A stretch of DNA of 64,000 bases, from positions 846,028 to 910,027 of the forward strand of contig CBDANZ010000005.1 of NCBI GenBank assembly GCA_965197865.1. The letters run 5' to 3'. Below are positions 1-5,547 of this stretch, piece by piece; the first letter of the stretch is position 1, and each line of letters opens with the position of its first letter. The stretch comes from Vicinamibacterales bacterium (GTDB lineage: Bacteria > Acidobacteriota > Vicinamibacteria > Vicinamibacterales > CAVVIG01). The notes under the pieces are model-generated. The model ran no database searches, was not told the DNA's origin, and worked only from the letters and a program-made list of their open reading frames with translations. The translations under genes and the position numbers were made by a program.

Positions 1-2
1 CG

Positions 3-1096
3 ATGAGCGTCAGAGTAGTTCCTTACACGAATGGCGGCTTCGAGGTGGACATTCGCCTCCGGCTGCCGAACGGGTTGCGGCATCGAGCGCGGCGAGTTCT
101 CTCGCATTCCTCGAAGTCGGCGGCTCAACGATGGGGTGCGGACCGTGAGCGATATCTCTTGCAGCACGGTCCTGCCCAACCACCGAAGGAGGTGCCTACC
201 ATCGAACAGTTCGCACCCAAGTTACTGGACGGATATGCGAGGCAAACCGTCAGAAGCCGAGCGGAATCGAGGCAAGAGAGACGATCATCCGCATGCATTT
301 GGTTCCGTTGCTCGGCGCCAAGAGGTTGGATGCGATCAGCAATGAAGTCGTTCAGGGCCTGAAACACGCGCTCCAAGACAGAGCGCCGAGAACCGTCAAC
401 AACGTGCTGACCGTGCTGAACAAGCTACTGAAAACCTCCGTCGAATGGGCCGCAATAGACCGGGTACCCTGCACGATCCGGCTGCTGCTGCTTCCCAACT
501 CCTCAGCGGCCTTTCACGACTTCGACGAATACGAGCGGCTTGTTGCGGCGGCCAAGTCAGACCCTAACGCCTATCTAATTATCCTCATGGGCAGCGAGGC
601 TGGCCTTCGGTGCGGTGAAATGATGGCTCTCGAATGGTCCGACGTGGACCTCTCGAAGGGGCAATTGTGTGTTGAACGCTCGGAGTGGAAGGGTCACCTC
701 ACAATCCCGAAGGGCGGACGGTTGCGTTATATCCTGCTCACCACGCGGCTGACGACCGCACTCCGCGAGCACCGGCACCTGCGCAGCTCGCGTGTGCTCT
801 GCGAGAGCGATGGCGCTCCGCTGAGCCGACAGCAGGTCCAGTACCGCGTCAAACGCGCCGCTCGGCGAGCGAACGTCGAGGACGGTGTTCATGTCCTTCG
901 TCACACGTCTTGCTCGCATCTCGCCATGTGTGGGGCACCAGGGCGGGCCACCCAAGAACTCGCGGGGCATAGTGAGTTGGGCACAACCCAACGCTATATG
1001 CACCTGAGTCCGATGGCGCTCGATGCGGCGATTCGGCTACTGGATCAGCGGCCCGTCCGTTCCGACTCGGGGAGACAGTGGGGAGACGGTCGCTGA
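3..1096 (+). pseudogene. Tyrosine recombinase/phage integrase, 1-nt frameshift near 242 (N-terminal arm-binding part 3-~242; catalytic domain 293-1096)
   Basis: Catalytic motifs GLRCGE, HVLRH, LAGH, QRYMH. Colinear paralog of the intact integrase at 28856-29995 (GYAR-ANR-KPS restored by a frame change). Lies next to a tRNA-Ser 3'-end repeat. Confidence 0.9.
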
Positions 1097-1132
1097 GGCC
1101 ACAGCGAAGGCCAGCGGTTAGAAGGACTTAAC

Positions 1133-1159
1133 TGGCGGTGAGGCAGGGATTCGAACCCT
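1133..1159 (-). repeat. att core: 27-bp duplicate of the tRNA-Ser 3' end
   Basis: tggcggtgaggcagggattcgaaccct is identical to 30012-30038. Confidence 0.95.
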
Positions 1160-1286
1160 AACGATGGATTTCTCTAACGCAGTGATGGGACACAACTTCT
1201 GGTCACAAGGGTTTATTTCCCTGTCGCTTACGGCCTACTTGTTCTCCTCTCTAGTCCCCGTGAGTCCTCAGGAGTAGACCCGAGTA

Positions 1287-1303
1287 GTGGAGAGATAGCG
1301 GAG
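1287..1303 (+). promoter_or_regulatory. Putative integrase arm-type binding site
   Basis: gtggagagatagcggag is identical to 29949-29965 at the other island end. Confidence 0.6.
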
Positions 1304-1396
1304 TGGGCGTCGCAATAGCAACGGGCCCAGGGTCGTTGCAGGCGCGCTACCGACAGGCCGTTCATGCGGACGCCTCGCCGGCCGAATCGACAGCCG

Positions 1397-1560
1397 TCAG
1401 ACTTTTTTGAGCAGCCGGTTGTCCAGAACCGTCTCCGCCCCCAGCAGCTTCAAGTGGGCATGCTCTGGCCGCAGATCGACGACGTCAGTCGACGTCGCCT
1501 CGCGCGTGGTGTCGCCCACGAGGCGCTTCTTCCCGGCCTCGAGAAACTTTGTACTCCAGC
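1397..1560 (-). pseudogene. IS3-family transposase OrfA remnant
   Basis: RWSTKFLEAGKKRLVGDTTREATS...LLKK resembles the OrfA C-terminal half; 5' part missing. Confidence 0.7.
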
Positions 1561-1693
1561 GTTGGCGCTTGAAACACCGTAACGTATTCCAAGACAATGA
1601 CTTGTAACTTTCCAATCGATCGCCTCCCCTCATCGTGTCCCTCGTTCTCAATCGAATGCCAGCGGGCCTAGAACACCGTGTGTGGACGCCTCC

Positions 1694-1949
1694 GTACATG
1701 CAAGCGTTTTTCTTCGGATGGTTCGGGCATGCGGTCAGGTGCTATCGTGTGTCCGGCCTCATTGATTGCGGCTGTCACACGCCGCGGGCCTGTATGAAGA
1801 TACGCGGGTCGAGTCCAAAATCGTCCATGTGTGCTCGAAGGCACTAGGTGTTCTTTCTGGCTTTCCCGACCCCGTCTCGGTGACCGTTTGCCCGTACCCT
1901 CCTCCGACCTGTTCGCATGCCCGACGGCGCCGCACCGGCTCCTGCCTGC
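1694..1949 (-). ncRNA. Putative bridge/seek RNA of the IS1111-type element (exact ends unknown)
   Basis: Stem-internal loop-hairpin at 1806-1872 with 8-nt guides AGAACACC and CATGGACG matching the flanking target; a second loop partly matches the circle junction. Confidence 0.75.
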
Positions 1950-2974
1950 TCAGGCGGTGACGGCCGACGCCCGGTAGTCTTCGTGCTTCGTCATCAGTGC
2001 CCAGGCGATGCGCGCCATCGGTTGGCCAGCGCCACCGCGACCAGCATGCGCGGCTTGTGCATCAGCATCTGGGCGAGCCAGGGGTCCTTCGTGGCGCCGT
2101 GCCACACGGCCCAGCGAAGTGTCGCCATCGCGCCGGCGACCAACAGCCGCCGGAGGTCGCGCTGACCCATCTTCGAGATCGTGCCGAGCTTCGGCTTCCC
2201 GCCGGTCGAGCGCTGCCAGGGAACCAAGCCCAACCACGCCGAGAAGTCCCGGCCGCGCCGGAAGCTCTCCATCGGCGGCGCGAAGGCCTGGGTCGCCATC
2301 GCCGAGAGCGGCCCGATGCCCGGGATGCTCATCAGCCGCACCGTCTGTTCGTCTTCGCACGCCTGCTCACGCAGTTCCTGCTCCAGCCCCGCGATCTTCT
2401 CGTCGAGCTCGGCGACCTGACCGAGCAACAGCGCACCCAGCTCCCGGACCGGGTCCGGCAGCCCCGAATCGGCATCCTCAATCGCCGCTGCCAGCCGCCC
2501 CAGATGCGCCGGTCCCCGCGGTGCAATGACGCCGAACTCGGCCAAGTGTCCCCGCAGCGCGTTACTCGTCTGCGTGCGCTGACGCACCAGTAGCTCGCGC
2601 ATGCGGAACAGCATGCCCCACGCCTGCTGCGCCTGCGTCTTCACCGCCACGAAGCGCATCGTCGGTCGCGAGGCCGCCTCGCAGATCGCTTCCGCGTCGG
2701 CCGCGGCGTTCTTCTGCCGTTTCACGAACGGCTTCACGTAGACCGGCGGGACCAGCTTCACCGCATGACCGAGCTGCCCGATCCGGCGGCCCCAGTGGTG
2801 GGCACTCGCGCATGCCTCCATCGCCACGACGCATCGCGGGTGCGACGCGACAAAGTCCAGCACCTTGTCCCGGCTCAGCTTCTTGCGAAAGGCAATCGAC
2901 CCGTCTAGCCGTGCGCCGTGGAGCTGAAAACTGCGCTTCGCCAGATCGATCCCGATGATGGTAGCGTGCTCCAT
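1950..2974 (-). pseudogene. IS110-family DEDD recombinase (transposase) with a C-terminal frameshift near 2020
   Basis: IIGIDLAK, AMEAC, KNAAADA, GLVPWQRSTGGK motifs; RBS ggagg before ATG 2974. The natural C-terminus MARIAWALMTKHEDY is in another frame ending at 1950. Confidence 0.88.
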
Positions 2975-3636
2975 TGGATGCCTCCTCCTCCAGGTGGTGT
3001 ACCGATACCTCCACCTTGGCACATCGCGATACCGTCGGGAGGAGGCGTCCACCCCATCATCCATGGACGGATTGAGATCGTGGACCCACGAGTACCGCCA
3101 TCGCAGATCAGCGCCCCGGCGCCGTCCCCAGCCGTTGAGCCCTTCGTGGAGCTTCACGAGCAGCCGATACGGCTGCCCGCTTCGAGCCGTGCCGCCTCGT
3201 CGCGCACCGGAGTGCCCTGGTCGTCGCGGGCCGTCCTGGTTGGCCCGCGCCTCGGCGAGCGAGACGAGCGCGCCGCTGCCGAGCCCGAGTTCGCGGCGGT
3301 GACTCCTCTGCGCCGGTGACTCCGCGTCGCCGTGACCATCCTCGTTTCCCCAGCCGGCCATTGACGGCTGGCCGTCGGGTGTGGTCAACAGTGTCCTGAA
3401 CCGGAACTCTCGTCGATGCGAGCGTTCACGTAGTCGACGTCAGATTCTGTGCTGCGCTTTCGGGATTCCGGGCCTTGCAAAACGCGATCGGAGGACCGTC
3501 AGCGGGCCAGAACCACGCCGGCAGCCTATGATCGGAGAGAGCATCACCGATCGGAACCCACTCTCCGCGTTTACCTATGCAGATCAGACAAGACAGGGGC
3601 ACCCCGTGGCGGGCCGCTCAAGAGCCGCCGCTAGGC

Positions 3637-4224
3637 TTAGTAGTCGCTGTCGGGTGTGTACGGCCGGCTCCAGAGCACGATGTGCAGAACCACCGACTTG
3701 AACCAAGCCTCGTACATCAGGTCGACCTCATCCTTGGTGTGTCCCTTGTTTTCCAGAAACGGGCGAATGGTCGCCATGATAGGATAGATGAACGCGATCA
3801 TATAGCGCAAGGGGACGATCGGGGCTGCATCCACGTCATCCGTCTTGTTCTTCTTGGCGCGGTGGTGCCGCAGCGCGACCTCGTGCTGGTAGTCCAGCCA
3901 CGATTGGTCATGGTCCCGCTCGCATGTGTCACGAATCCACTGCCCGAAGCGCTCGCGAACCGCCGCCAAGTAGTTGCCGACAGGCTCTCCGTCCTCGCCG
4001 GCGAAGTAGGCGAGAAGGTGCGCGTTCGAGCCGACGAAGCCGTACCAAACGTCCAACACGTCCTCAACTTGGTCGCTGAGAACTGCGCCGGCTCGCCGCA
4101 ACGCCGAGCGGTCCTCGTCGGTGAACAAGAGTGTCTCTTGGATCAAGCCAAGGTCCTCTAGAGAGAGTGGCGAGCGAGCCAAGTCAGCCGCTCCGTAGGT
4201 GTATCCGGGAATCGAAGTAGACAT
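3637..4224 (-). CDS. Protoglobin (single-domain globin)
   Basis: IPGYTYG N-terminus, LDVWYGFVGS, WLDYQHEVALRHHRAKKNKTD, PLRYMIAFIYP and LWSRPY are typical protoglobin motifs; ggagg RBS. Confidence 0.92.
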   Translation of the reverse strand: MSTSIPGYTYGAADLARSPLSLEDLGLIQETLLFTDEDRSALRRAGAVLSDQVEDVLDVWYGFVGSNAHLLAYFAGEDGEPVGNYLAAVRERFGQWIRDTCERDHDQSWLDYQHEVALRHHRAKKNKTDDVDAAPIVPLRYMIAFIYPIMATIRPFLENKGHTKDEVDLMYEAWFKSVVLHIVLWSRPYTPDSDY

Positions 4225-4359
4225 AAGTCCTCCAAAAATATGTATAGAGTCGATACTTACGTGCAGGATAGACGACCGCCGTTCCGCCCTCCCTTTGTCA
4301 AGCTCTGCATCCGATAATTCTCCCACCCTTTCCGACGGCAGGACAACCGCAACCCTGCC

Positions 4360-4800
4360 ATTCGAGCAGCCGGGTACACGGACTGAATCCAATGTCCGTC
4401 ATCTCGTGAAGTCGTCGTACCGGTTCTAAGAGACGGTGACGCCGAAGCTTGCGCGCGGTCGAACGCGGTTCGCACGCCAACCTCGATGTTGTCGCTGGTC
4501 TCCGCCCGCAGATTCGCTTTCGGCAGCGTCGTGTACCCGCCGCGCGGATTGGTGAAGCCGGTCTCGTGCGGGCCGCGCAGCTCCCAGCCGCCGATGCGAT
4601 GATCGATGGCGGCGCCATCGGCCGCTAGGGCGATTCCCCGCAAGCGCGGCCCGCGAGCAAGCTTCTCCCATGTGCGCCCGGGCGAGAGCACGAGTCGGCG
4701 GAACCCGGGGCTGGTGTTCTCGATGGAATGCGCGTGGACGCGACCGATGAGGCCGCCGTAGACGTACAGCGCGCCCTCGTGAGAGATCACGACGCCGATC
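4360..4800 (-). pseudogene. Chimeric remnant: kelch-protein N-terminal fragment fused to a TonB-receptor fragment
   Basis: About 4360-4566 is homologous to 6950-7150. About 4566-4800 is homologous to 12090-12110 plus 12280-12480. Confidence 0.85.
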
Positions 4801-4908
4801 AATGATACCTGGGCCGCCTCATTGCTGAGTACCGCCCTCCAGTCGGTCTTTGGCGTCCCGCGTGGTGGCAGCGCCGATCGCGGGAGAGCAGCGGAATCGA
4901 ACCCTGGG

Positions 4909-5547
4909 TCAGTCGATCGTGACGTACCGCTCCAGGCGCTCGACTTCGTCGTCATCGACATACTTGCCGATCTCCCGACGGAACTGCTCGATCTGACGGT
5001 AGGGCCGATACTCTTTGAACTCGCGAAGCATCCGGTTGCCCAGACTTAGAATCGAGAGAATATCCGCGTCGCTCGCGGTGTTCAGATTGATTGGGACGAA
5101 GACGAATTGCTCCAGGCGCGCCACCTCGTCGTCGTTGACATACTTGCCGATCTCTCGACGGAATTCCGCCATGTGAGCGTAAGGTCGGTACTCCTCGAAC
5201 TCATGGGCCATGCGTGCGCCGACACCGGGAACCAAGAGAATCTCTTCTTCCGTCGTCGCGTTCAGGTTCAACGGCAGAAACAGCCGGGAGTAGAGCTCGT
5301 CCTGCGCGGCTTCGTCCAGGGACCGCCCAACCAGCGCGTGGACCTCGAGCATGTTCCGAAACGGGCGCCCGTCGACGATTGTAGACGCACGGGCTGCGTT
5401 CATGTGCGGCAGCGCACTGAGTTCAGCTTCGGTTGCGGTATTCGGATTCAGCACGCCCATGTTACGACCGACCTGCGCGTGGACCAGCGCAATGCATGGC
5501 AGAACAAGCGACACCGCAAGAAATCGGATCAAGATTCTACATGTCAT
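4909..5547 (-). CDS. Secreted protein with three helix-hairpin-helix (ComEA-like) repeats
   Basis: Signal peptide; three LN(P/L)NTA/AT...LP-GxG type units; duplicated EFxEYRPY...FRREIGKYV block. Confidence 0.85.
   Translation of the reverse strand: MTCRILIRFLAVSLVLPCIALVHAQVGRNMGVLNPNTATEAELSALPHMNAARASTIVDGRPFRNMLEVHALVGRSLDEAAQDELYSRLFLPLNLNATTEEEILLVPGVGARMAHEFEEYRPYAHMAEFRREIGKYVNDDEVARLEQFVFVPINLNTASDADILSILSLGNRMLREFKEYRPYRQIEQFRREIGKYVDDDEVERLERYVTID

Follow-up and report, generated by a model that had tools for sequence, protein, structure and literature searches.

The window, the whole 64,000-nucleotide stretch of DNA that was analyzed, contains an IS1111-type insertion sequence of the IS110 family at 1679-3059 on the minus strand. 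It is a slightly broken copy. The 271-nt noncoding region at its right end encodes a predicted bridge RNA (seekRNA) of about 150 nt. In our reading, this RNA guides a DEDD recombinase to its target and also matches the ends of the element itself, and we give that reading a probability of about 0.9. The element has the anatomy and boundaries of its relatives, and its RNA region has a conserved RNA-type structure. Both target guides covary with the flanks across relatives, and the 3' donor strand covaries with the end of the element. A first-pass annotation of this DNA had already placed it in the IS110/IS1111 class with a guide RNA, and comparison with 80 relatives upholds that assignment.

The element, its relatives, and its insertion site

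The element and its target consist of the following features, with left and right given in the orientation of the element.

1679-3059, minus strand: whole IS1111-type element, 1,381 bp (inverted repeats; ends that align with 80 relatives; paralog L129; metagenome contigs)
3059-3052, minus strand: left 8-nt terminal extension TGATGGGG, which precedes the left repeat
3041-3051, minus strand: left subterminal inverted repeat, 11 bp, TGGACGCCTCC (sequence; alignment with relatives)
1950-2974, minus strand: recombinase gene, ATG at 2974 (Pfam, NCBIfam, relatives)
1683-1693, minus strand: right subterminal inverted repeat, 11 bp, GGAGGCGTCCA (sequence; alignment with relatives)
1682-1679, minus strand: right 4-nt terminal extension CACA, which follows the right repeat
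1670-1678, plus strand: target half to the right of the element, with the right-junction core CG at 1677-1678 (sequence; L129)
3060-3066, plus strand: target half to the left of the element, plus-strand TCCATGG (sequence; L129)

The length of 1,381 bp includes the left-junction copy of the YG core (TG, 3059-3058). The element contains 85 nt of noncoding DNA upstream of the gene (3059-2975) and 271 nt downstream of it (1949-1679). As in IS1111 elements, the longer noncoding region lies 3' of the gene, at the right end. The subterminal repeats of 11 bp fall within the 7 to 17 bp of that group, and the extensions of 8 nt and 4 nt are short.

The relatives were retrieved by a scan with one genome per species, and the best 80 of 426 confirmed relatives were used. 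These 80 have 71 to 84% protein identity and often occur in many copies per genome. The MAGs that carry them are labeled Vicinamibacterales, Alphaproteobacteria, Longimicrobiales, Gemmatimonadetes, Binatia, and others. All of the best 80 have the same layout of ends, gene, and RNA. In the closest relatives (L040-L055, labeled Vicinamibacterales), some 290 additional bases separate the RNA from the right terminal repeat (for example, L046:3265-3553). These bases are absent from the window and from the alphaproteobacterial copies.

A paralog of the flanking sequence was found in the same genome (L129). It is continuous across the junction, and its length equals that of the left flank plus the right flank. 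Metagenome contigs (four runs, DNA-type contigs) join approximately 1676-1679 to approximately 3086-3093, with homologous but not identical letters between. They probably represent related, element-free target loci, either in other organisms or as other copies. L129 and the metagenome joints indicate that 1679-3059 is an inserted piece with no duplication past the core. Site-specific insertion without target duplication, the IS1111 pattern, is seen in the length of L129 and in the consensus flanks of multicopy relatives. The first-pass annotation had proposed that removing 1679-3059 restores the target. It does: the 15 bp covered by both guides are rejoined, and the boundaries are backed by the repeats, L129, and the metagenome contigs.

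Elsewhere in the genome, the best matches to the 15-bp target have 2 mismatches. There are nine such sites, compared with five for a control pattern. The target locus (1600-1678 and 3060-3100) is a dispersed repeat with at least two paralogs in the same genome (L129 and L130) and diverged element-free versions in the metagenomes. By eye, the paralogs fit the guides poorly.

The recombinase frame is open from 2974 to a stop at 1996-1994 and encodes 326 aa. It stops there because of a 1-base deletion that adjoins plus-strand position 2018, 21 codons ahead of the normal stop. The deletion swaps the last 21 residues, which are conserved in relatives, for 7 others. The conserved C-terminal tail runs on in another frame to a stop at 1952-1950. 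All 12 relatives that were translated have 340 to 342 aa, within the IS1111 range of 330 to 350 aa, and one base more at the 2018 position. Metagenome contigs from all four runs carry an extra base behind 2018 (C) at about half of the depth. A contig from run X1 links the left flank to the 2018 site in the deleted form of the window, with no gaps. Run X1 may be the source sample, so this contig is not independent.

The recombinase encodes an N-terminal DEDD (RuvC-like) domain and a C-terminal Transposase_20 domain. The Pfam matches are PF01548 (DEDD_Tnp_IS110; 2.1e-12) and PF02371 (Transposase_20; 1.2e-19). It matches the NCBIfam equivalog NF033542, "IS110 family RNA-guided transposase," with 291 bits against a cutoff of 140. 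Its PDB matches are distant and are the ISCro4 and IS621 transposases (1.1e-6 for IS621). The GL-P----S/TG motif (PMC11187229) is present as GLVPWQRSTG in the translation, checked by eye and not aligned to the logo. All of the testable features of the IS1111 group were found except the protein length in this broken copy.

The genome (3.1 Mb) has only one full copy of the element, 1679-3059. The frameshift near the 3' end of the gene and the lack of a second full copy indicate that this copy is probably no longer autonomous. It is thus best to regard the guides as recording the insertion at this site. Judged from the sequence, activity of the element in this genome is doubtful.

The window also contains a tyrosine recombinase (phage integrase family) gene at 3-1096. 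It seems to be split into overlapping frames at 3-362 and 293-1096. The second frame, the only one scanned, matches PF00589 (1.6e-26). Beside this gene, approximately 1130-1175 on the minus strand resembles the 3' part of a tRNA (T-arm and acceptor end). ARAGORN found no whole tRNA in 1-5000, so this stretch may be an attachment-site remnant of an integrated element. A 78-aa frame at 1400-1633 on the minus strand lies beside the IS1111-type element. A resemblance to the first frame of IS3-type elements was considered and dropped, and an NCBIfam search gave no family for it.

The predicted RNA, its guides, and its donor strands

The right-end noncoding region contains the following features, all on the minus strand.

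1733-1885: predicted bridge (long seekRNA) core, 153 nt (RNAalifold, 36 distinct relatives)
1806-1872: target-binding stem-loop, 67 nt (minimum-free-energy fold; RNAalifold; pair counts)
1872-1865 with 1813-1806: outer stem of the target stem-loop (4 pairs changed on both sides)
1860-1857 with 1818-1815: inner stem of the target stem-loop (fold and alignment)
1844-1841 with 1834-1831: apical hairpin of the target stem-loop (fold and alignment)
1847-1854, in loop strand 1856-1846: 5' target guide AGAACACC (8-nt exact run with own flank; covariation)
1822-1829, in loop strand 1830-1822: 3' target guide CATGGACG (6 of 7 flank positions and the core; covariation)
1794-1800: candidate 5' donor strand UCUUCAU (conserved; complementary to left end ATGGGG with two G-U pairs)
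1755-1790: conserved hairpin between the donor strands, with GGCC/GGCC and GCGGC/GCCGC stems (RNAalifold, pair counts)
1744-1752, in multiloop strand 1754-1738: 3' donor strand ACACACGAT (4-mer match to the right end)
1698-1703: TTGCAT, -35-like hexamer, 19 nt from the right end

Folded to minimum free energy, 1949-1679 reached -110 kcal/mol. Shuffles gave -92.5 +/- 5.0 (z = -3.5), and none of 200 folded as stably. The fold reproduces the double stem, internal loop, and apical hairpin that the first-pass annotation had read at 1872-1806 on the minus strand, and the letters are as it quoted them.

The consensus of 36 distinct RNAs has six helices and 31 pairs, and 98.6% of its 1,115 cells are paired. 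Eight of the 31 pairs changed on both sides (48 cells). None of 500 column shuffles reached the observed pairing, and sliding the 3' partners by 1 to 3 columns lowered pairing to 20 to 49%; this pairing control is partly circular because the structure came from the same alignment, and the compensatory pairs are unaffected. Outer-stem pair 24/89 is AU in 14 sequences, GU in 12, and GC in 10, and outer-stem pair 29/84 is GC in 26 and AU in 10. Apical pair 52/65 is GC in 14, UA in 11, and AU in 6. This is conserved RNA secondary structure with covariation, as in seekRNAs and bridge RNAs. One inner-stem pair is G-U in 35 of the 36 sequences, which would be a mismatch on the opposite strand. The frequent G-U pairs on this strand only argue for a single-stranded molecule of this polarity.

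A covariance model (R1), which the first-pass annotation had suggested building from homologous IS1111 ends, was made from the alignment of relatives. It scores 160 bits at 1733-1885, as high as any relative. A search of the RNA region against Rfam gave two matches to unrelated families at chance level (E values of 3.1 and 6.8), so no curated family covers the RNA. A further stem, drawn by eye between the strand 3' of the target stem-loop and a donor strand, was dropped, as it is not conserved in the solo RNA module L002 described below.

The two target guides were found as the first-pass annotation had read them. Plus-strand 1670-1677, its top strand left of the junction, reads AGAACACC and is identical to loop stretch 1854-1847. 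Plus-strand 1677-1678 joined to 3060-3065, across the junction, reads CGTCCATG and is the reverse complement of loop stretch 1829-1822. Together, both 8-nt guides match 15 bp of the rejoined target. In element orientation, the 5' guide can pair with the core G and the right flank on the top strand. The 3' guide has the same sense as the left flank plus the core CG and is hence complementary to the bottom strand. In the window, the 3' guide matches 6 of 7 flank positions and the core, with a difference at the outermost position, and the 5' guide has an exact run of 8. The 5' guide ends at the core G. Opposite the first core position it has a mismatch in the window, and this position is variable among the closest relatives.

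For the window by itself, 20,000 dinucleotide shuffles were made, and in 203 of them the 271-nt region contained two separate 8-mers from the 30-bp rejoined site. This test allows either strand of the 30-bp site and counts two separate sites. The support against chance from the window alone is thus modest, and the comparative support is decisive.

The internal loop in every relative contains CCAG, 10 or 11 variable nt, the hairpin, 7 variable nt and YG, AU, and UUGG. On the 3' side, the sequence of the 7 variable nt and YG is that of the left flank and core of the same element. On the 5' side, the variable nt correspond to the core G and right flank in reverse complement. The guide counts cover 72 of 81 elements (80 relatives and the window), which were parsed into 33 guide classes and 62 distinct insertions. 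Four elements were left out because the right end was not found (L036, L038, L043, and L056), two because of a deletion in the left repeat (L046 and L050), and three because the RNA anchor was not found (L048, L107, and L108).

Over the 62 insertions, the 3' guide agrees with the left flank of its own element at 5.32 of 7 positions on average, compared with 2.13 for the flanks of other classes. It scores 5 or more in 50 of 62 own pairs and in 158 of 3,590 other pairs. The 5' guide was scored by its longest exact run, because the best window of 8 understates matches near the stem. It has an exact run of at least 6 with its own right flank in 28 of 62 insertions, compared with 61 of 3,590 other pairs. 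When the flanks were permuted over the 33 classes, the permuted scores had a mean of 193.7, an sd of 10.0, and a maximum of 240. The observed score was 358, and 0 of 10,000 permutations reached it. Both target guides therefore covary with the flanks across relatives. This is the covariation that the first-pass annotation had said should be looked for, and its "readable natural guide-target pair" is real: the 33 guide classes follow the rule. Some flanks are identical across contigs (L096-L098, L105, and L106 on the left; L043, L044, and L076) and by eye look like coding frames of mobile elements. This suggests that some guide classes target other insertion sequences.

The donor part of the RNA matches the ends of the element. 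The 3' donor strand ACACACGAT has the same sense as the right end ACACA, the core CG, and the first bases of the left end. It lies single-stranded between the conserved hairpin at 1790-1755 and the stem that closes the multiloop at long range. In 71 of the 72 parsed elements, the variable 4-mer of this strand is the same as the final four bases at the right end of that element, with five right-end types (CACA, CATA, CAGA, TAGA, and TACA). UCUUCAU is a candidate 5' donor strand, by analogy with the target loop. In most relatives it is UCUCCAU, complementary to the left end ATGG(G/A)(G/A). It has this conserved complementarity without clear covariation because the left end hardly varies.

The first-pass annotation had put ACACACGAT in a second loop, one mismatch from the circle junction. 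The stretch is present at 1752-1744 on the minus strand, and so is the mismatch, which falls on the first base of the YG core; the left junction has TG here, and the right junction has CG. Against the right-junction copy, ACACA-CG, the stretch matches exactly. A simple internal loop does not hold: the donor strands sit in a multiloop, closed by GGUCA (1885-1881) paired with UGACC (1737-1733).

Solo RNA modules, a second family, and the core dinucleotide

Three cases from outside the sample of relatives obey the same guide rule. L002 was found in the same genome. It is a 275-nt RNA end alone, 73% identical, with no gene and no left end.

L002:1515-1790 (G000:C1, about 207161-207449): solo RNA module, CG on both sides

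L002 is inserted precisely in a palindromic repeat, and an uninterrupted copy of the repeat lies 80 nt away. Its loop matches the reverse complement of the right flank at 8 of 8 positions and the left flank plus core at 7 of 8. The second case came from a search for DNA similar to the RNA, which matched 58 plasmid records, none of them annotated at the RNA. A copy from this search, on a plasmid of Sinorhizobium meliloti, follows the same guide rule.

The third case is a second IS1111-type family in the genome of the window, with a recombinase that is 42% identical. The covariance model retrieved 27 further full-length, weaker matches there (40 to 49 bits), which lie after genes of this family (for example, G000:C4:101158-101313). 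These RNAs have the same six-helix architecture with many compensatory changes. The right flank is common to all 27, and the left flank to the 26 that have an identified left repeat. Both shared flanks fit the family's own loop guides. One second-family RNA, at G000:C5:489668-489823, has no left repeat within 3.2 kb and no recombinase match nearby. Judged from these surroundings, it is another solo RNA end.

Relatives contain, on the left, the left flank, YG, and ATGG(G/A)(G/A)TGGACGCC, followed by the gene and the noncoding region. On the right they contain GGCGTCCA with 4 variable bases, YG, and the right flank. YG (CG or TG) is present at both junctions and thus behaves as a core. The core of IS621 is reportedly CT, per the bridge-RNA work.

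The window has TG at the left junction (3059-3058) and CG at the right junction (1678-1677). In its clade, both RNA loops encode CG. Seventeen distinct insertions have TG at the left junction and CG in the RNA, and their right junction is CG in 15, TG in 1, and GG in 1. The TG-left, CG-right pattern was seen among relatives L034-L055 and L076. No element within the clade of the window has CG at the left junction. The only CG-left, TG-right event is L099, from another clade. The second family of the same genome has the same core asymmetry (T left, C right).

If strands were exchanged with a stagger around a 2-nt core, and the donor and target cores differed, replication should leave both arrangements. 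The bias toward one of them suggests that the first core base lies outside the exchanged overlap or that selection keeps the T, perhaps for a junction -10 element. One more specific reading is tentative, and we consider it possible but rather unlikely. It holds that the donor and target cores differ and that recombination tolerates this, with C in both loops. The donor base would stay on the left and the target base on the right, and the T would be kept as the third base of the junction -10 (TTGCAT, 17 nt, CATGAT). If true, this would constrain the strand-crossing point in IS1111-type elements.

When the ends of the element are abutted, TTGCAT lies 17 nt before CATGAT, a hexamer that spans the core. 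Of 29 distinct end pairs, 28 have a TTG hexamer 16 to 18 nt upstream of the one formed at the junction. The pair may act as a junction promoter. In the literature, a circle-junction promoter transcribes the gene and the noncoding region together (PMC11187229). A sigma-70-like promoter scan of 1600-3150 gave 0 sites inside the integrated element. The same scan gave two terminator-like sites within the gene, at the level of shuffles. The 24 sequencing runs listed for this sequence include no RNA run.

Proposed mechanism, alternative readings, and known systems

The proposed mechanism is as follows. The 5' guide would pair with the top strand of the target, to the right of the YG core. The 3' guide would pair with the bottom strand of the left target half and with the core itself. 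Two single strands of the multiloop would read the element's own abutted ends in the same way. A DEDD recombinase loaded with this RNA would then bridge the circularized element and its target, with strand exchange at the core. The element would be inserted without target duplication beyond the core. Transcription (probably from the circle-junction promoter), RNA processing and binding, and catalysis are expected from experiments on relatives.

The element and its RNA gene may instead be a dead remnant, from which nothing is made or mobile and which preserves a fossil guide-target pair. We find this fairly probable for the window copy. The 1-base deletion alters the last 21 residues of the recombinase, the X1 contig has the same form without gaps, the 3.1-Mb genome contains a single full copy, and the element has no promoter-like site within it. 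However, the rest of the frame is open and 81 to 84% identical to intact relatives, the RNA still scores 160 bits, as high as any relative, and the guides have kept their match to the flanks. Help in trans is uncertain, since the genome's other IS110-family recombinases share only 42% identity with this one. The two other alternatives concern the guides themselves. It is very improbable that the matching stretches act as DNA, either as recombination sites read by a protein or as a folded single DNA strand. The counts given here address sequence and not the kind of molecule. The stems keep G-U pairs that mismatch on the complementary strand, which fits a single strand. In IS1111 relatives, as described in PMC11187229, the RNA copurifies with the transposase, is needed, and can be reprogrammed. 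For ISEc11, RNA provided in trans has been shown to rescue insertion once the DNA region is deleted. Coincidence of two 8-nt matches in a G+C-rich hairpin would be in keeping with the 203 of 20,000 shuffles that give two separate 8-mers. It is scarcely credible as an explanation when the same loop positions follow the flanks in 33 guide classes, with 0 of 10,000 permutations as high, and when L002, the S. meliloti plasmid, and the second family obey the same rule out of sample.

The RNA-guided reading fits what has been described for the IS1111 group. In the account of PMC11187229, the more 5' of the two stretches is complementary to the top strand and the more 3' one to the bottom strand, and their matches overlap in the target. 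The window and its relatives have this guide order, including the overlap at the core. The sizes are comparable, with a 67-nt target stem-loop and 153 nt in all here and 70 to 100 nt for seekRNA and 154 nt for long seekRNA there (PMC11187229). Compared with ISEc11, ISPa11, ISKpn4, and ISPst6, as presented by Siddiquee et al. (2024; PMC11187229), the element belongs to another sequence family and has another target. Its family occurs mostly in uncultured soil-type lineages and on alphaproteobacterial plasmids. It is known here from sequence alone, and the window copy is frameshifted.

Like IS621 (Durrant et al., 2024; PMC11208160; 8WT6 and others), the element has target-binding and donor-binding RNA parts, each of which reads the two strands of the DNA around a 2-nt core found at both junctions. 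In IS621 the RNA is in the left end, whereas here it is in the right end and the order of the two guides is reversed. The donor strands also differ from those of IS621 in that they lie in a multiloop, and the protein match is distant (1.1e-6). Many IS1111 orthologues have donor strands in a multiloop, according to Durrant et al. (PMC11208160). The family may already stand in the ISfinder-wide tables of predicted bridge RNAs of that paper.

ISPpu9 and Ssr9 (Pares-Guillen et al., 2025; PMC12288879) also include RNA-only modules that lie apart from the gene in palindromic repeats. L002 and the second-family RNA at G000:C5:489668-489823 are comparable to ssr9 alone. The small RNA of ISPpu9 is reported there not to be required for transposition (PMC12288879). 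In contrast with ISPpu9, the solo module L002 has guides that match its own flanks.

The class was described in 2024, and NF033542 already names an RNA-guided transposase, so this is a correct reading of an already known system. The first-pass annotation had also offered the element as a candidate programmable recombinase scaffold. Such a proposal is generic, and here the recombinase is frameshifted in the sole full copy in the genome; intact relatives are found elsewhere. The added value is modest: a natural series of guide classes that share a scaffold, RNA modules that stand alone, and a core that differs between the junctions. For annotation, the unannotated 150 nt after such genes would be a functional RNA gene, as predicted from sequence, and solo copies of it exist. 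Recombinases of this RNA-guided class are under development for genome editing, and every natural family whose guides can be read therefore supplies further design rules. The family is of more value here than this broken copy: it contains 33 guide classes from several phyla on one scaffold. These classes show which loop positions are free, and the donor strand tracks the end of the element. They also give the reach of the guides: one side covers the core and about 7 nt, and the other covers the core G with 6 to 9 nt.
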